Of a DNA stretch of 64,000 bases, positions 18,313 through 41,297 are shown in pieces. Origin of the DNA: a virus. Lineage: Duplodnaviria > Heunggongvirae > Uroviricota > Caudoviricetes. The stretch lies in IMG/VR virus record IMGVR_UViG_2802429224_000004, positions 1-64,000 of that record. One strand, given 5' to 3'. The position numbers and the translations under genes are program-made. How positions within the stretch are numbered: the first letter of the stretch is position 1; the number at the start of each line of letters is the position of its first letter. Under the pieces are notes generated by a model. The model saw only the letters and a program-made list of their open reading frames with translations, did not search any database and was not told the origin of the DNA.

Positions 18313-18638
18313 TTCCCGCCTCCCTTTTTCACCAAACTTGTAAGAACATTCAGAATGCTATCGATATTCACTCGTTTCATCCCTGAAATCACCTCATGAC
18401 CGTTATTGCTGGCTATCGTTACCATTAAGTACGTAATTGATAACTCCCAGCCCTCGTGTTGCCCCAATAGGTACGCCATCGCGCCCGCTGTCACTGCAAC
18501 AAAGATCTCCGTAACCAATCCCAACAAATTGCCAGACTGGCGTCCATCTCGGACATCCAGCAGGAACGTGCCTATCCCACCAATTACTGAAAGCAGGAGC
18601 GCAATAGCAACTGGAGTTAATCCCTGAGTGTCAAGCAC
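18309..18638 (-). CDS. lydA: LydA-like holin
   Basis: 109 aa with predicted TM helices and charged C-terminus (KKGGGK). Confidence 0.55.
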   Translation of the reverse strand: MLDTQGLTPVAIALLLSVIGGIGTFLLDVRDGRQSGNLLGLVTEIFVAVTAGAMAYLLGQHEGWELSITYLMVTIASNNGHEVISGMKRVNIDSILNVLTSLVKKGGGK

Positions 18639-18698
18639 AAGTTCCCTCCTACGTTGTCAGGAGGTAATGGTATGCAAAGTAACTTCTCATCTGGTTGT

Positions 18699-18983
18699 TC
18701 ATAATTTGCCAATACATTCGTAAATCAAGTGAAAAACCCATATTTTGGTTATTCTTAATACAAAATGGCTATTCCAACTACATATCAAAAAAGCAACCAC
18801 ATCCAAAAATGAGTTTCCCCACTGAACTTCTGCAAGACAAAAACCAACAAAACCACCTTTTATGGCAAGCAGCCATGCTTCAAGCCAATGTAAAAAACAT
18901 GGCTTATAAGCTCCACGCCTAACTCCAGTAAGAAATAAATAGGTTCCACTAATAATGGACATTAAAAAAATCAAAATCTGCAT
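18699..18983 (-). CDS. possible small membrane protein in AT-rich region
   Basis: 94-aa hydrophobic ORF; AT-rich, may be non-coding. Confidence 0.2.
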   Translation of the reverse strand: MQILIFLMSIISGTYLFLTGVRRGAYKPCFLHWLEAWLLAIKGGFVGFCLAEVQWGNSFLDVVAFLICSWNSHFVLRITKIWVFHLIYECIGKL

Positions 18984-19104
18984 AAGCTCCTCCCGGATCT
19001 AACAAAAATCAAGCAGGAACCTATTCAGATTGTTATTTCTGTGCATAACGCTTTGTTCTTTAAAATTCGCAGACTCATAAGAACAACGCATTAGAGTAAA
19101 AATC

Positions 19105-19665
19105 ATGCTGATCGGCTATGTACGCGTATCAACAAATGAACAAAACACTGCTTTGCAACGAAATGCCCTTGAAAGCGCAGGATGTGAGCTAATTTTTGAG
19201 GATAAGGCGAGCGGCAAAAAGACTGAACGCCCTGGGCTAAAAAAGGTTTTGCGTATGCTTTCCAGAGGTGACACCCTGGTCGTATGGAAGTTAGATCGTC
19301 TTGGGCGCAGCATGCGTCACTTGGTTGTGCTGGTGGAAGAGCTGCGTGACAGAGGAATTAATTTCCGGAGTCTCACTGACTCTATCGACACCAGTACACC
19401 AATGGGGCGCTTTTTCTTTCACGTAATGGGGGCGCTGGCAGAAATGGAACGTGAGCTTATCGTTGAACGTACACGCGCTGGACTTGATGCAGCTCGCGCA
19501 GAAGGTCGTATAGGTGGGCGTCGGCCTAAATACCAAGAAGAAACATGGCAGCAAATGCGGCGATTGCTGGAGAATGGCATCCCCCGTAAGCAGGTTGCAA
19601 TCATCTATGATGTGGCTGTTTCCACGCTTTATAAGAAGTTTCCGGCGTCGTCATTTCAATCCTAA
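19105..19665 (+). CDS. cin: serine recombinase / DNA invertase Cin
   Basis: 186 aa; catalytic Ser motif YVRVSTNEQ; strong Hin/Gin/Cin family similarity; C-terminal HTH. Confidence 0.9.
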   Translation: MLIGYVRVSTNEQNTALQRNALESAGCELIFEDKASGKKTERPGLKKVLRMLSRGDTLVVWKLDRLGRSMRHLVVLVEELRDRGINFRSLTDSIDTSTPMGRFFFHVMGALAEMERELIVERTRAGLDAARAEGRIGGRRPKYQEETWQQMRRLLENGIPRKQVAIIYDVAVSTLYKKFPASSFQS

Positions 19666-19682
19666 ACCTTGGTTTAAGAGAA
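19657..19682. other. Cin crossover site (cixL-like)
   Basis: caatcctaaaccttggtttaagagaa; hix/gix-like 26-mer with AAACC-TT-GGTTT core; overlaps cin stop. Confidence 0.65.
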
Positions 19683-19712
19683 CTCGGTACCAGCGGTGAA
19701 AAGATCCCCCTG

Positions 19713-21719
19713 TTGAGCACGGCTAACACATGGAGTGCACGCCAGACTTTTAACGGCGGGATCACCGGGGCGTTGACAGGGAACGCCGATACCGCGACGA
19801 AGTTGAAAACAGCACGGAAGATTAACAACGTTTCATTTGATGGTTCGGCAGACATAACGCTGACACCTGAGAACCTTGGCGTCACCAGTCTGACGTTTGA
19901 GAAAAACAACGGTGAAATGCCTATTGATGCTGACCTAAATACTTTCGGTCCCGTTGAGGCTTATCTTGGTGTCTGGTCCAAAGCAACATCCACCAACGCA
20001 ACACTGGAGAAAAATTTCCCGGAAGATAATGCTGTCGGTGTGCTTGAGGTATTTGCTGCCGGAAATTTTGCAGGTACGCAACGCTTTACCACGAGAGACG
20101 GCAATGTATACATACGCAGACTCGCCAATAAGTGGAATGGCTCTGATGGTCCGTGGGGCGTATGGCGTCACACTCAATCAGCTACCCGCCCTTTGAGTAC
20201 GACTATAGACCTGAATACGCTTGGAGCCGCCGAACATCTTGGTTTATGGCGTAACAGTAGCTCGGCTATAGCTTCATATGAACGCAATTATCCAGAGGAA
20301 GGCGGCTTTGCTCAGGGGATGCTTGAGATACTCGAAGGCGGAAATTATGGAAGAACGCAACGTTATACCACTCGCCGTGGAAATATGTATGTCCGCTGCC
20401 TTGCGGCAAGCTGGGATGCATCAAATCCGCAGTGGGAACCGTGGTTAAGAGTCGGTCATCAGTCAGAGAGTCGTTATTACGAAGGTGATTTAAATGTTCT
20501 AACCGACCCCGGTATTTACAGTGTTACAGGAAAGGCAACAAACGGTCCGATGCTGGACACAGTTGGCGCGACACTACTTGGGATACTGGAAGTAATCAGA
20601 CGTTTTGATGGTGTGTCTGTCTGGCAGCGTTACACAACCACAGGGAAATCAGAAACCACACAGGGACGCACTTTTGAGCGCGTCTACGCCGGGAGCAAAT
20701 GGACCGAATGGCGAGAAGTGTATAACTCCTTTTCGTTGCCCCTGAATCTGGGTATCGGTGGCGCAGTAGCAAAACTCACCAGCCTGGACTGGCAGACCTA
20801 CGACTTTGTGCCGGGCAGTCTGATAACCGTTCGGCTTGATAATATGACCAACATTCCCGACGGTATGGACTGGGGCGTCATTGATGGCAACCTGATAAAC
20901 ATCGCAGTGGGTCCGAGTGATGATTCCGGTACGGGGCGCTCAATGCATGTGTGGCGCAGCACTGTAAGTAAAGCGAACTACCGCTTTTTTATGGTGCGTA
21001 TTTCAGGAAATCCGGGAAGCCGCACGATCACGACAAGACGTGTGCCAATTATCGACGAAGCTCAGACATGGGCGGCGAAACAAACCTTCAGCGCCGGTCT
21101 TTCAGGCGAACTGTCCGGCAATGCTGCTACAGCTACAAAGCTGAAAACGGCACGAAATATTAATGGTGTCAAATTTGATGGCACCGGCGATATAAATATT
21201 AATACGCTGGTATCCCGGAATCGCGTCACAGCATTAAGCGGGAGTGCAAAGGGGACGCCTGGTATTCAGATGTATGAGGCATATAACAATGGCTACCCTT
21301 ACGCCTATGGCAATGTGCTTCATCTTACGGGAGTGTCCGCAGTTGGAGAAGGTGAGTTACTTATCGGCTGGAGCGGCACCAGTGGAGGTTACGCGCCAGC
21401 ATATATCCGTTCAAGGCGGGATACAGATGATGCTCAATGGTCTGGATGGGCGCAACTATATACAACCGCTCATAAACCATCGGCAGGTGATATTGGTGCT
21501 TATACTCAGGCGGAATGTAATTCGCGTTTTATTACAGGTATTCGCTTAGGTGGTTTGTCATCCCTTCCAACGTGGAATGGTACTGGCTGGCATGACAGGT
21601 CAGGGCATGTTCTTACTGGTGTCGTCAATAGTAATACTGATGAATTAATTGATATCGCGCAGGCAAGGCCAATTCAGTATTGCATTAATGGAACGTGGTA
21701 TAACGCGGGGAGTATTTAA
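19713..21719 (+). CDS. alternative tail-fibre variable part (Sv'-like), silent in this orientation
   Basis: Reading frame starts at cixL with no own start context; encodes junction peptide then receptor-binding-like module; would fuse to Sc after inversion. Confidence 0.6.
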   Translation: MSTANTWSARQTFNGGITGALTGNADTATKLKTARKINNVSFDGSADITLTPENLGVTSLTFEKNNGEMPIDADLNTFGPVEAYLGVWSKATSTNATLEKNFPEDNAVGVLEVFAAGNFAGTQRFTTRDGNVYIRRLANKWNGSDGPWGVWRHTQSATRPLSTTIDLNTLGAAEHLGLWRNSSSAIASYERNYPEEGGFAQGMLEILEGGNYGRTQRYTTRRGNMYVRCLAASWDASNPQWEPWLRVGHQSESRYYEGDLNVLTDPGIYSVTGKATNGPMLDTVGATLLGILEVIRRFDGVSVWQRYTTTGKSETTQGRTFERVYAGSKWTEWREVYNSFSLPLNLGIGGAVAKLTSLDWQTYDFVPGSLITVRLDNMTNIPDGMDWGVIDGNLINIAVGPSDDSGTGRSMHVWRSTVSKANYRFFMVRISGNPGSRTITTRRVPIIDEAQTWAAKQTFSAGLSGELSGNAATATKLKTARNINGVKFDGTGDININTLVSRNRVTALSGSAKGTPGIQMYEAYNNGYPYAYGNVLHLTGVSAVGEGELLIGWSGTSGGYAPAYIRSRRDTDDAQWSGWAQLYTTAHKPSAGDIGAYTQAECNSRFITGIRLGGLSSLPTWNGTGWHDRSGHVLTGVVNSNTDELIDIAQARPIQYCINGTWYNAGSI

Positions 21720-21721
21720 TT

Positions 21722-22255
21722 ATGATGCACTTAAAAAATATTACTGCTGGCAACCCTAAAACAAAAGAGCAATACCAGCTAACGAAACAATTTAACATCA
21801 AATGGCTTTATACAGAGGATGGGAAAAACTGGTATGAGGAACAAAAGAACTTTCAGCCTGATACGTTGAAAATGGTCTATGACCACAACGGCGTTATTAT
21901 TTGTATTGAAAAGGATGTTTCAGCAATTAATCCAGAAGGCGCAAGCGTCGTTGAATTACCTGATATTACAGCAAATCGCCGGGCTGATATTTCGGGTAAA
22001 TGGATGTTCAAAGATGGCGTAGTGATAAAGCGAACTTATACCGAGGAAGAGCAGAGGCAACAAGCGGAAAATGAAAAGCAAAGCTTGCTACAGCTCGTCA
22101 GGGATAAAACTCAGCTATGGGATTCTCAGCTACGACTTGGAATTATTTCTGCTGAGAATAAACAAAAATTGACCGAGTGGCTGCTCTACGCGCAGAAAGT
22201 AGAGTCTACGGATACCTCCGTCCTGCCAGTCACGTTCCCCGAACAACCAGAATGA
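21722..22255 (+). CDS. tail fibre assembly chaperone (U'-like)
   Basis: 177 aa, paralog of the minus-strand U-like protein (shared [39 protein letters not shown]). Confidence 0.65.
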   Translation: MMHLKNITAGNPKTKEQYQLTKQFNIKWLYTEDGKNWYEEQKNFQPDTLKMVYDHNGVIICIEKDVSAINPEGASVVELPDITANRRADISGKWMFKDGVVIKRTYTEEEQRQQAENEKQSLLQLVRDKTQLWDSQLRLGIISAENKQKLTEWLLYAQKVESTDTSVLPVTFPEQPE

Positions 22256-22257
22256 GA

Positions 22258-22284
22258 GAAGGCCCGTTCGGGCCTTATTTTTTA
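22258..22284. terminator. bidirectional terminator between convergent U' and U
   Basis: hairpin aggcccgttcgggcct followed by T-run. Confidence 0.5.
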
Positions 22285-22818
22285 TTCAGGCTTTTGTGGC
22301 CATTCTGGATTTGCCGTATCCACGCGGCTGAGCAGAACGCTGTAGCGTTCCCAGCCATCCAGCCGTGTACGTTCCTCATCTGTTGCCAGATTCATCCTGA
22401 CGGCACGTTCCAGCAGCCGGATGACTGATTCAGCTTCGGAAAGCAAAGCTGCTTTTTGTGATTCAGCCTGCTGTTGTAATTCATCTTCTGTATAGACTCT
22501 TTTAATTACAGCACCATCCTTAATCATCCAGTTGCCGGAAATATCAGCGCGTCGGTTTGCCGTAATATTGGGTAACTCGATCACACTCATTCCCTCTGGA
22601 TTAATCAGGGATGCGTCTTTCTCTATGCAGCAAATAATACCCTCCTGGTTATATGCCACTTTTAACGTGTCTGGCTGGAAATTTTTTTGTTCCTCATACC
22701 AGTTCTTACCTTCTTCCGACCATAACCAGACAACATCAAATTCTTTTGTAAGTTGATACTGTTCGATAGTTTTTGGATTTCCTGCTTTAATATTTTTTAA
22801 ATGCTGCATATTAAGCAC
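22282..22818 (-). CDS. U: tail fibre assembly chaperone (U-like)
   Basis: 178 aa, Tfa-family similarity, directly downstream of expressed S. Confidence 0.7.
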
Positions 22819-25774
22819 GTCCTACATTGTACCACTGACCATTAATATATTTCTGGACAGGCGCATAAACAGGCCACTCCCAGTCATCATCAAAGTTACC
22901 ACCTGTAAGAACATACCCCGCCGGGAGTGTTCCACCTTCACCCCCCCATTTTATTCCGCTCTGGTTAGCTCCCATGCGAACGTCACGCACATAGCGTGAG
23001 TCAAAATTGCCATAATTTCCGGGAATAATTTGCGCACCGCAAAGCCAGTTACCGTTATTGTCCATGTACGCCTGACCATCGGTGCCATTGGCTGTCCTTG
23101 AGTTATTAATCATGTAGATGCCAAATTGCTTATTTCCCAGACCGCCAATCATAAATTTGCGGTCGGCATGGTCCTGACGGAGCAAGGCCTGAGCACCATC
23201 AGTGGATACCGCATTACGTCCCATAATAACGTTCTGGTCACGCATATGAATCCACATGCCTGTACTGCTGTTAATTAAAAAACGGTTTGTAAATATATCT
23301 CCTGTAACATCCAGACCATGCCCCATGCTTATCCGACCAGTTCTAAGATTAAGCGTAAAGGGGCGTAGTGGCCCTATATCACCATTTTCTCCCTCGTTCT
23401 CTCGTGTAGGGATGATATGCAGGCATTCTTCAGAACGGCGAAAAATGGCACCAAAAGATGAATTAAATATCCTCAGTGCATTGACTGTCGATATTTTTAC
23501 TTCACTGCTGAAAAGGGCTTTAACAAGAACAGACAAAGCATCCCATTTAAGATTCATCAGGTCTTTTGTTGTGGTGCTTTGTTTGCTTCTCCATTTGAAA
23601 TATTCATTGCCGTTGTCGCCTGTTTCAAACCACATGTATGAATCAGTATCGCTGTCGGCATCATTTTTAAATCCAATCTTTGCCCAGTCAGTATTTCGAA
23701 TCCAGGCAAGAATTGAGTCGTTTTCAAAAGTAAGTCCACCGGACAAGGTATCGCCTGTCTTTTGAACCGCGTTATCAGCCTTGTTTACCGTTTCCTGTAG
23801 ATTTAAATTTTCCGCTGTTAGCTCAATATTTTTAGAACCGTCAAACGAGACACCGTTGATAGTACACGCCGTCTGCAATTTGGTCGCTGTAGCCGCATTA
23901 CCAGAGGTGTCCTGATTCCCTTTGACATTGACGCCGGGAATTGAATCTTTTGACGTATAGACCTGCGCCCATTCGGACCATGCCGCAGCAGTGCTATCTC
24001 TTTTGGATCGAATGAAAGCTGGTGCATGAGCGCCATTTGTGCCACTCCAGCCAATGAGCAACTCGCCTTCACCAGTGGATGCAGCTCCCTTCAGGTGAAG
24101 TACATTCCCGTAAGTCGTCGGATAACCATTGTTGTATGCCTCATACATCTGCAATCCAGTAGCAGCACCTTGCGTTATACCGGTAAGCGCAGTAACGCGT
24201 CCTCTAGACGTAATTGTTGGTATCGAAATGTTCGTAGAACCATCGAATCTGACGCCATTAATGTTTATGGCTGTTTTTAATTTCGTCGCGGTGTCGGCGT
24301 TCCCTGTCAGCGCCCCGGTGATCCCGCCGTTGAAAGTCTGGCGCGCACTCCATGTGTTAGCCGTACTCAACAGGGGGATCTTTTCACCGCTGGTACCGAG
24401 TTCTCTTAAACCAAGGTATTGGATAACGGCCAGTGTGCTTGTTTTAGCCAGAATATCGCGACCGACTGACGTTAAATCAGTCTGAGCTACCGTATCCTTA
24501 CCAGTGAAATAAGGCAGTTTGTTTGCACCAGTCGCAAGGGCAGCGAGAGCGGTTAAAGTTGCATCCAGAGGCTGTTTGCCTGCCAGCGCATTTGTCATTG
24601 TTGTCGCAAAGTTCGGGTCATTGCCAAGTGCTGCGGCAAGCTCATTCAGGGTATCAAGAGCTTCTGGTGATGAACCAACCAATGCGGATATGGCAGCTCT
24701 TACATAAGCGGTCGTAGCAATCTGCGTGTTATTCGTACCCTGTGCAGCGGTAGGCGCAGTAGGTATTCCCGTTAATGCTGGACTTGCTAAAGGCGCTTTA
24801 AGAGCCAGAGCATTGTTGATAGTTGTGCTGAAATTCGGGTCGTTATTGATCGCAGCAGCTATTTCTTTAAGCGTATCCAGTGTGCCAGGTGCACCGTTGA
24901 TAAGTGCTGTTATAGCTGCCTTAACAAAGGCTGTATTTGCTATCTGCGTGCTGTTTGTACCTTGCGCTGCCGTCGGCGCGGTTGGCGTTCCTGTCAGACT
25001 CGGGCTTTCTATTGGCGCTTTGGTATCAGCCAGATCTTTTACAGACTTAACAGCTTTAGGGGTAGCTGCCATTGTTTCGCTGTCGCTGTTAGTTGCGCTA
25101 CTGAGCTGAACTAATCCCTTTTGCGTTGTGCTTGCATCCTGCGCCGTATACTTGCTTTTCGCCAGATCGTAGGCTTTTTTAACTGCCAGCGAACTTGCAG
25201 CAACATCACTTCTGCTACTGGTTACAGAGTCTGAAATATCAATGCCGATCGTGCGGTTAATACGCTCGGATGTATCAATCATCTCCTGGGTAATGGCTGA
25301 TACGCCGGCAGGGATATTCACCGTACAAACAAGCAGCTCCCCATCTCCTAACTGATATGAATCGGTATAGGTTCTGGTAACAAATTCAGCCGCATGAATA
25401 TGTGACGCGGTATTAACCTGATAGGTATCCTCTCCAAGGAGGTATCTTCCCTTCAGCACAATTGCATATTTCTTGCCTGCACTAAGTGCAAGAGAAATAT
25501 CCGTACGTTGCTGAATAGTTACCTGGTAGAATTCACCAATATCCACCGACGCCGCGCCTGCGGTTTTATCACCATCCACTGAGGTGATTAACAGGTTCAT
25601 CCCACCGCCAGGCTTAGGTAAGAAACCGGCATAAAATCCCGGGTCAACAATCCCCCTGAATTTTCGGTTTAGCGCGGCTGACAGATATGGTTCGTGGTAT
25701 TGCACATCAGCCACCAGAGCCAACGACTCGGGTGATGGGTAAGTAACTGATGTAACAACTGTAACGTCATTCAT
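22811..25774 (-). CDS. S: tail fibre protein S (constant Sc fused to currently active Sv)
   Basis: Probable ATG at 25774 with aagga RBS (ORF extends to 25861); Ala/Thr-rich tandem repeats; spans cixR. Confidence 0.75.
24401..24426. other. Cin crossover site (cixR-like)
   Basis: ttctcttaaaccaaggtattggataa; inverted copy of the cixL core, inside S. Confidence 0.65.
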
Positions 25775-25785
25775 CAAGCATATCC

Positions 25786-26220
25786 TTATGCTGTTGTCGT
25801 GTTTATGGCCATAACTGCGGTATATGTTTTGCCCACATACAGCGAGTCTTCCTGGACACAAATAATGGCGATTGGCTTGTTCTCGTTATCCAGAACAACC
25901 AGAGTGTTGAATGGGTAGTTTTTCCCTTCCTGCAACTGGCTTTGATCAAGGTCCATTCGGACAGTAATTATCCCGCCAGAGTAGGTTGGGACGAGGTTAA
26001 TGGTGCAAAATTGACTGGTCAGTTCAGCCAGATCGAAAACCTTTGGCAGTTCTCCAATCTCATAAGTGCCATCTCCTTTCTTAGTAACCAATGAACTGGT
26101 ACCGAAAACGGCCTTGCTGATTAAAAATCGAGAGCCTTTGTTAATGGACGATTCAGCGCGCCGCTGATAGTAATAGTCCAACAACTGACTCTTATAGAGG
26201 TTTGTTGAGACGTCAGACAT
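25786..26220 (-). CDS. tail-fibre-associated structural protein (R-like)
   Basis: 144-aa ORF directly upstream of S; synteny only. Confidence 0.4.
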   Translation of the reverse strand: MSDVSTNLYKSQLLDYYYQRRAESSINKGSRFLISKAVFGTSSLVTKKGDGTYEIGELPKVFDLAELTSQFCTINLVPTYSGGIITVRMDLDQSQLQEGKNYPFNTLVVLDNENKPIAIICVQEDSLYVGKTYTAVMAINTTTA

Positions 26221-26298
26221 GATTTTCCCTAATCAATGTTGTGAAGCCTCATTGTAAGAGAAGTAACTTGTCACCCCGCCCTATGGACGGGGTGATTG

Positions 26299-36778: not shown

Positions 36779-36959
36779 GTATTTTTAAGTCGCGAATGCT
36801 ATCTTTTCGCATCATATTGACCTTTTAATCGTTCAGGCTTATAGTTCCCGCCGTCGTAGCAAATTCTGCGACCGGGTTTAGCAGCCTGAATACTTACGCG
36901 GACAACCGCAGATTTCCGATATTGCGGTATTTTTGTGTCCGTAAACCACGTTACGCCCG

Positions 36960-37085
36960 AATTATGGTGGGGCGTGATGGGGAGGCTTCGGCCTGCTGGT
37001 TTCGTAAGTGCCAGTCTGCTAACCCCGTCACGTCCTGCCACCTGTTTAGCAGCGGGTCGCAGGTTGTTTATCAACTTACGAGGCC
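36960..37085 (+). ncRNA. candidate c4-like antisense RNA region (boundaries undetermined)
   Basis: Non-coding, structured region between the operator and icd containing stem-loops (aggcttcggcct UUCG tetraloop; ctgctaa...ttagcag); called by position relative to icd/ant only. Confidence 0.2.
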
Positions 37086-40967: not shown

Positions 40968-41090
40968 TACAATCGCTGCGGGTGCTTGAGGCTATCTGCT
41001 TCAGGCATTACCCGAAAAGCAGATAGAAGAAAGCCCCAGATAACATTACGCGTCCGGCAAGACGCTTAACATTAATCTGAGGCCACATCT

Positions 41091-41297
41091 ATGCTTAACA
41101 TACGTAGATTAGCCTCTTACCGACCAAAAGGTCAAGGAGAAGCAGGCTATGAAGCAGCAAAAGGCGATGTTAATCGCCCTGATCGTCATCTGTTTAACCG
41201 TCATTGTGACGGCACTGGTAACGAGGAAAGACCTCTGCGAGGTACGAATCCGAACCGGACAGACGGAGGTCACTGTCTTCACAGCCTACGAATCTGA
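41091..41297 (+). CDS. mok-like overlapping reading frame of hok locus
   Basis: 68-aa ORF in +1 frame overlapping almost all of the hok-like gene, as in hok/mok/sok loci. Confidence 0.35.
   Translation: MLNIRRLASYRPKGQGEAGYEAAKGDVNRPDRHLFNRHCDGTGNEERPLRGTNPNRTDGGHCLHSLRI

Follow-up and report, generated by a model that had tools for sequence, protein, structure and literature searches.

Probable Cin-cix tail-fibre switch of a P1/P7-like phage-plasmid pairs a diverged P1-S-type cassette with a P2-gpH-like cassette

The window analysed here, by which we mean the whole stretch of 64,000 nucleotides (nt), corresponds to positions 1-64000 of PTST01000020.1, from the draft short-read assembly GCA_002965365.1 of Escherichia sp. 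MOD1-EC5948, an unclassified Escherichia. By its sequence it is identified as part of a P1/P7-like phage-plasmid: many P1-like plasmids of E. coli align with 96% of positions 26000-50000 at an identity of ~98%, and P1, P7, RCS47, and D6 all match the region around the locus that concerns us, a candidate invertible tail-fibre segment (C segment) adjoining the gene of the DNA invertase Cin, with flanks matching P7 and P1-like plasmids at 96-98%. The locus and its upstream control region comprise the following features (lengths in base pairs, bp, nt, or amino acids, aa; ORF, open reading frame).

19105-19665, + strand: cin, encoding a serine DNA invertase of 186 aa (Pfam Resolvase 3.8e-51, HTH_7 2.4e-18).
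19123-19194, no strand: putative recombinational enhancer (sis) inside the 5' portion of cin, located through its homology with the annotated P1 enhancer.
19657-19682, + strand: cixL, 26 bp, CAATCCTAAACCTTGGTTTAAGAGAA, with its central TT at 19669/19670, base-for-base the cixL of P1 and P7.
19659-19855, + strand: left arm of the terminal inverted repeat, 197 nt, 87% complementary to 24228-24424, coding for the common start of Sv and Sv'.
19670-24413, no strand: invertible C segment, 4744 bp between the TT crossover dinucleotides of both cix sites.
19671-21719, + strand: Sv', the alternative C-terminal fibre part, read in an open frame from the crossover on, where it lacks a start codon of its own.
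21722-22255, + strand: U', 177 aa, predicted assembly chaperone for S' (Caudo_TAP 4.1e-36), 96% identical to P1 U'.
22282-22809, - strand: U, 175 aa from its ATG, predicted assembly chaperone for S (Caudo_TAP 2.7e-34).
22811-24413, - strand: Sv, the C-terminal fibre part in the present reading, one ORF with Sc, with a Gp34_trimer match.
24228-24424, - strand: right arm of the terminal inverted repeat, which pairs with 19659-19855.
24401-24426, - strand: cixR, 26 bp, TTATCCAATACCTTGGTTTAAGAGAA (reverse complement), with its central TT at 24414/24413, base-for-base the cixR of P1 and P7.
24414-25774, - strand: Sc, the constant N-terminal fibre part outside the segment, 96.5% identical to P7, with Phage_fiber_2 repeats.
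25786-26220, - strand: R, an ORF of 144 aa and the first gene of the fibre operon, called as Pfam Phage_P1_tail_fiber_R in the source annotation.
26251-26269, - strand: late promoter LPs, with -22 box AAGTTACTT and -10 box TACAAT, outside the segment and placed by homology to the P1 annotation.

The crossover sites were assigned in a six-way alignment that included the annotated sites of P1 and P7. An earlier note, made from the letters of this DNA, had proposed two inverted 26-mers at these positions, bounding a segment of ~4.7 kb with convergent variable and chaperone gene pairs. Both proposals are borne out: when the two ends are aligned as reverse complements, cixL and cixR agree at 22 of 26 positions, lie in mutually inverted orientation, and share the same central TT, which sets the invertible segment at 19670-24413, and inside it the two cassettes converge, with Sv'-U' on the + strand and U-Sv on the - strand. 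No further cix-like sites were found in the 64 kb with a core pattern search, and a looser search allowing ≤3 mismatches returned nothing above chance. The locus is therefore a two-site switch, unlike the multi-site Min system of p15B; a multi-inversion system like Min or the plasmid shufflons, which have more than two crossover sites, was considered and dropped since only the two cix-like sites occur in the 64 kb.

The adjoining invertase has the features of its subfamily, namely a Resolvase catalytic domain followed by a C-terminal HTH_7 domain, a Ser9 that lies within the conserved YVRVST motif, and a gene directly next to the segment. It is 99% identical to the Cin proteins of both P1 and P7, and the cin stop codon lies within cixL, as it does in P1. 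In P1, the sis enhancer is Fis-dependent, and the P1 annotation places it at nt 19-90 of cin. The corresponding stretch of the window (19123-19194) is identical to P7 and carries 3 mismatches relative to P1, so that a putative Fis-dependent enhancer is present at the 5' end of the invertase gene, where it would be expected to function as its P1 homolog does. P1 and P7 align to LPs without gaps, and neither differs from the window in the -22 and -10 boxes. LPs, R, and Sc all lie outside the segment, and both of the U proteins encoded by the two convergent cassettes within it match Caudo_TAP. At a threshold of 1e-3, our Pfam search gave no match for Sv' or R, and the identity of Sv' was assigned from DNA and protein-cluster matches instead.

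As the earlier note had also read it, the minus-strand Sv is fused to Sc: the ORF runs unbroken through cixR and yields an S fibre of 987 aa from its ATG (22811-25774). When the segment 19670-24413 was inverted in silico, the resulting S' frame was equally open, encoding 1136 aa with no stop codon. Both orientations thus contain an in-frame, full-length fibre gene, and the Sv'-U' arm has neither stop codons nor frameshifts. In the present orientation, Sv is predicted to be the arm that is expressed and Sv' the one that is silent. U is 79% identical to P1 U and 78% identical to P7 U', and U' is the intact equivalent of P7 Ua and Ub combined. Between the convergent U' and U genes lies a GC-rich hairpin (22259-22276, + strand), which the terminator scan returned as AAGGCCCGTTCGGGCCTT followed by ATTTTTTATT. 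Its T-run is found on the + strand only, and it looks like an intrinsic terminator for Sv'-U' and a bare hairpin for S-U.

The two ends of the segment are joined in identity by a terminal inverted repeat, which the earlier note had described as ~130 bp long, already diverged at several positions, and shorter than that of P1. This description is a fair one. Counted inward from the crossover, the first 130 nt agree at 96%, the first 144 nt at 95% (7 mismatches), and the first 186 nt at 88%, after which identity decays; the whole repeat amounts to 197 nt at 87%, and its longest perfect stretch is 52 nt (19666-19717 and 24366-24417). From our own measurement of the GenBank records, the P1 repeat is 636 nt at 98% and the P7 repeat is 198 nt at 87%; RCS47 similarly has 198 nt at 87% and D6 198 nt at 93%. 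What did not hold up is the implied oddity of a short and imperfect repeat, as this is the ordinary P7-type state. Indeed, the left arm of the window is 98% identical to the P7 left arm and its right arm is 96.5% identical to the P7 right arm, an arm-by-arm match which indicates that the divergence between the arms is older than the split of these phages.

The first 48 codons past the crossover specify the same peptide in both arms, and consequently all 7 of the core mismatches are synonymous. The terminal repeat is a coding sequence common to both arms that is held under constraint at the protein level, rather than a recombination substrate. Both variable parts would have their first ~48-60 residues encoded by it, and in this role it may be short and may drift at synonymous positions. 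The terminal repeat of a C segment can accordingly shrink to ~150-200 nt and drift synonymously with the cix sites unaffected, and repeat length offers no criterion for an active switch.

Natural relatives were then the place to look for both orientations. We searched 72,556 plasmids with junction probes from P7, each made of 423 nt of Sc and 830 nt extending into unique Sv or Sv' sequence. The native Sc-Sv junction was recovered as one piece at 99.7-99.9% identity in CP057875, CP031351, CP057446, and CP032067, and the inverted Sc-Sv' junction was recovered at 99.8% in CP057623, CP127257, and CP148408. Compared with P7, CP057623 has colinear flanks, and the block between the cix sites (2560-6588 of P7 locus L001) is flipped at 99.8% identity, with its ends falling within the terminal repeats (L001 2560-2714 and 6434-6588). 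P7-type segments therefore exist in both orientations in nature, and since these are segments of the P7 type, short and imperfect repeats are no bar to switching.

The same flip bears upon how such an inversion comes about. Rather than being catalyzed by Cin at the cix sites, it could in principle proceed by RecA-dependent homologous recombination between the repeats, for which arms of 197 nt that agree at 87%, 52 nt of them without a mismatch, make a possible though poor substrate. The repeat is nevertheless short and mismatched, and the segment has an intact invertase beside it and exact target sites for that invertase at its ends. The ends of the CP057623/P7 flip fit an exchange at cix, even though the overlap with the repeats would also allow an exchange elsewhere within them; for P1, Iida et al. 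in 1982 reportedly placed the crossover at cix. We regard the RecA route as highly improbable and prefer inversion by Cin.

The composition of the two cassettes is where this locus departs from its relatives. With the whole locus (19000-24600) as the query, no record covering ≥80% of it was found in 50,697 phage records, the 72,556 plasmids, or 5,426 complete E. coli genomes, and the locus is instead a mosaic of recognizable pieces. Positions 18600-19844 are P7-like at 98%, and 19845-21473 is not present in P1 or P7. The interval 19876-22069 is 93% identical at the DNA level to a P2-like prophage of E. coli EC556, in which it corresponds to gene H from codon ~227 onward and the beginning of gene G. 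This module makes up the body of Sv' (19876-21719), a P2-like gpH module with knob-like repeats, and the similarity continues into U' as far as 22069. It is ~95% identical to peduovirus fibre genes, with DNA identity to P2-like gene H of 93-97% overall, and the Sv' ORF belongs to the same 90% protein cluster as 840-aa proteins annotated as "phage tail-collar fiber domain-containing" or "pyocin knob domain-containing". In a composition profile, the P2-like module in Sv' is not distinctive. The end of Sv' together with U' is of the P1 type, distal Sv and U are ~81-83% identical in DNA to P1 Sv/U and P7 Sv'/U', and proximal Sv, cixR, Sc, and R are P7-like at 96.5%. At 90% clustering, S is the sole member of its cluster.

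A combination assembled from a draft short-read source, in which Sv' is 93-97% identical to a chromosomal P2-like gene H, raises the question of whether the assembly has joined a P1-like plasmid and a P2-like prophage at the repeat to create a chimera. The evidence makes this scarcely credible. An independent Logan contig (SRR3987707, contig 307; 4708 bp) is exactly 19688-24395 of the window, which confirms the internal arrangement of the segment, as it spans the left repeat, the P2-like module, U', U, Sv, and the right repeat. In addition, the joint between the repeat and the P2-like module recurs at 95% in complete P1-like plasmids, and the reading frames are intact across all joints. We accordingly read the combination as genuine. 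The Logan contig is also the invertible segment minus 18 nt per end, and contigs of this kind are open to misreading as evidence of inversion. It was considered here as a sign of both orientations and rejected, since its ends fall exactly at the points where the 52-nt perfect repeat forces a k=31 de Bruijn graph to break.

The complete plasmids in question are CP056621 and CP122941, both P1-like, in which the repeat and P2-like module (19659-21193) are found at 95% DNA identity, covering ~510 of the ~680 Sv' codons. In both, the module forms a permanent fusion with Sc, the distal tip and chaperone after it are not those of the window, and neither cin nor the segment is present. Sc fused to this module body thus occurs as a complete annotated fibre gene. 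In each of the two (CP122941, L003 4510-9181; CP056621, L004 4510-10089), there is a single 1181-aa fibre gene consisting of Sc and the P2-like module, and downstream of it come genes for another assembly protein and a serine acetyltransferase, with a macro-domain gene also present in CP056621. Both plasmids are locked single-fibre variants with extra cargo. RCS47 is another altered relative: in its annotation, cin (L008 1027-1567) is a two-piece pseudogene, although the C segment and 198-nt repeats have stayed intact, and it is probably a natural example of a frozen switch.

Several further features of the fibre sequences accompany this mosaicism. The motif GNA(D/A)TATKLxTAxxINGVxFDG is found in two copies per fibre form, one within the terminal repeat and one further in: at residues 491 and 625 of S (window ~24304 and ~23902, - strand) and at residues 491 and 937 of S' (window ~19782 and ~21120, + strand). 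P2-like gpH has a single copy at residue 641, and a similarity of 75% to the P1 terminal repeat is seen in the DNA at 21111-21463. The motif resembles a recurring boundary between modules. The shorter form GNAxTATKLxTA was considered as the joint of the P2-like exchange and rejected, because the P2-like similarity begins ~20 codons downstream (...GVTSLTF...) and the prophage fibre lacks the motif at that point. In P7, the inner part of the C segment (L001 2782-5256) is flipped relative to P1 and to window positions 21474-23920, such that P7 distal Sv'/U' matches the distal Sv/U of P1 and the window and P7 Ua/Ub matches U'. A second, displaced inverted repeat of 129 nt (88%) is found at the edges of this inner block in both P7 and RCS47, and it could have mediated the inner-block flip of P7. 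The cin-Sv'-U'-U-S block counts among the eight regions of P1-like phage-plasmids listed as highly variable (PMC9603915) and is a region described as a recombination hot spot (PMC6906374). Given that status, a cassette exchange of the sort seen here is expected.

From these results, we conclude that the locus is very probably the C segment of a P1/P7-like phage-plasmid, a Cin-cix inversion switch for tail-fibre host range. All structural parts of a Cin-type switch are present and intact in the sequence, and the suggestion of a Cin-type tail-fibre switch, which was the central one of the earlier note, is upheld by a Cin that is 99% identical to those of P1 and P7, identical cix sites, the enhancer, LPs, two cassettes, and frames that are open both ways. 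We infer that inversion also takes place in MOD1-EC5948 itself and that S and S' would recognize different receptors.

Certain points weigh against this conclusion. The sole orientation of the window's own element on public record is the present one (Sv-Sc), and the Logan contig carries no orientation information, its ends being fully explained by the k=31 graph break. The exact S' fusion protein was not found among ~15 billion proteins, in which S itself is present on one contig only; as the element is known from one assembly, the S' look-up is uninformative. Finally, identity to P1 U is no higher than 79% for U, and distal Sv matches known alleles at only ~81-83% in DNA, so that the function assigned to the present fibre is one predicted by homology.

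Some of these same observations would suit a switch that is structurally intact but in effect a locked relic, inverting too rarely in this host to matter, with S alone being made and Sv'-U' carried as silent cargo. One orientation of the exact element is on record, the S' fusion is missing from the protein collection, and locked or degraded relatives are common, given the RCS47 cin pseudogene and the loss of cin and the segment from CP056621 and CP122941; altered switches have been described in relatives as well (PMC6906374). These locked relatives all carry clear lesions, unlike the window, in which there is no damage to the sequence: Cin shares 99% identity with active P1 Cin, neither the cix sites nor the enhancer has changed, and the two arms are open, as are their chaperones. 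Furthermore, a single assembly is incapable of displaying two orientations. We therefore consider a locked relic unlikely and favor a functional Cin-cix switch.

For the functional switch, the following course of events can be proposed. In the P1 Cin, Gin, and Hin systems, invertase dimers bind the crossover sites and assemble with Fis at the enhancer into an invertasome, followed by cleavage at the 2-bp core, a 180-degree rotation, and religation. By analogy, Cin, encoded immediately to the left of the segment, would bind both of the inverted 26-bp cix sites and, with host Fis bound to the enhancer in cin, would make staggered cuts at the central TT, whereupon rotation by 180 degrees and religation would invert 19670-24413. 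LPs, R, and Sc would remain fixed outside the segment, with reading proceeding from Sc into whichever arm faces cixR. In the present state, this would be Sv and then U, giving the 987-aa S fibre of the P1-S type; after inversion, it would be Sv' and then U', giving the 1136-aa S' fibre with a distal module of the P2-gpH/knob type. In P1, cin switches between S and S', two fibres that confer different host specificities (PMC13172314).

Whether a diverged P1-S-type fibre and a P2-gpH-type fibre under one Cin switch amount to a toggle between two receptor specificities, one of them recently acquired from P2-like prophages, we consider evenly balanced. If this is true and both fibres work, the locus would offer a concrete example of an invertible segment capturing a cassette. 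A P2-type receptor-binding module in the silent arm illustrates how invertible segments gain fibre cassettes, and for host-range prediction or P1-based delivery, it provides a natural Sc-compatible fibre of the P2/knob type. Beyond annotation, the significance is small, as the locus extends a textbook phase-variation system by one further combination of alleles.

Elsewhere in the window, the P1-like character of the genome is apparent from the C4 antisense RNA and its a1/b1 target (36839-37045; Rfam), which belong to the P1 immunity region ImmI, and from two tRNA genes at 58068-58142 and 60082-60157, an Asn-GTT tRNA and a tRNA with a CAT anticodon. Both are as expected for a P1-like genome. 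At 40980-41154, where P1 has rlfA/rlfB, Rfam reports a full-length sok antitoxin RNA (115.7 bits), which suggests a hok/sok-type toxin-antitoxin locus that may be a non-P1 cargo module.

Among known systems, the closest is P7 (AF503408 / NC_050152), with which the window shares its flanks, cin, cixL, cixR, and enhancer (96.5-98% DNA identity), as well as proximal Sv, the gene order cin-Sv'-U'-U-Sv-Sc-R, and the type of terminal repeat (198 nt at 87% in P7 versus 197 nt at 87% here). The two differ in segment length (~4.0 kb in P7 versus 4744 bp), in the P2-like gpH module that forms the window's Sv' body and is missing from P7, in the displaced second 129-nt repeat found in P7 only, and in U', which is split into Ua and Ub in P7 and intact in the window. 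Moreover, the distal Sv/U of the window corresponds to the distal Sv'/U' of P7, at ~83%. P1 (NC_005856) resembles the window in a Cin that is 99% identical, in identical cix sites and LPs boxes, in a colinear layout, in a U' that is 96% identical, and in an S of 987 aa in both. It differs in its far longer and better matched terminal repeat (636 nt at 98% versus 197 nt at 87%), in an Sv' of ~520 codons versus ~680, and in distal Sv and U, which are only ~80% identical. The fibre genes of P2-like elements are represented by gene H/G of the E. coli EC556 prophage, which matches 19876-22069 at 93% DNA identity, and of Peduovirus P24E6b. These fibres have a P2-type N-terminus and are not invertible, whereas in the window the module has been attached after the P1 Sc/cix/repeat region, with a P1-type U' chaperone at its end.

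More broadly, Gin of Mu, Hin/hix of Salmonella, Pin of e14, and Min of p15B all combine a serine invertase of ~190 aa with inverted 26-bp sites, a 2-bp core, and a Fis enhancer, and the switches of Mu, e14, and p15B also alternate the C-termini of fibres. Distal Sv/U of the window is 86% identical in DNA to Mu S/U, and the inverted repeat of Mu, at 34 bp, is exceeded in length by that of the window. Min of p15B has six sites versus the two found here. Against this background, the switch itself is well known, and what is new is only the combination of modules, namely the pairing of these two fibre cassettes.

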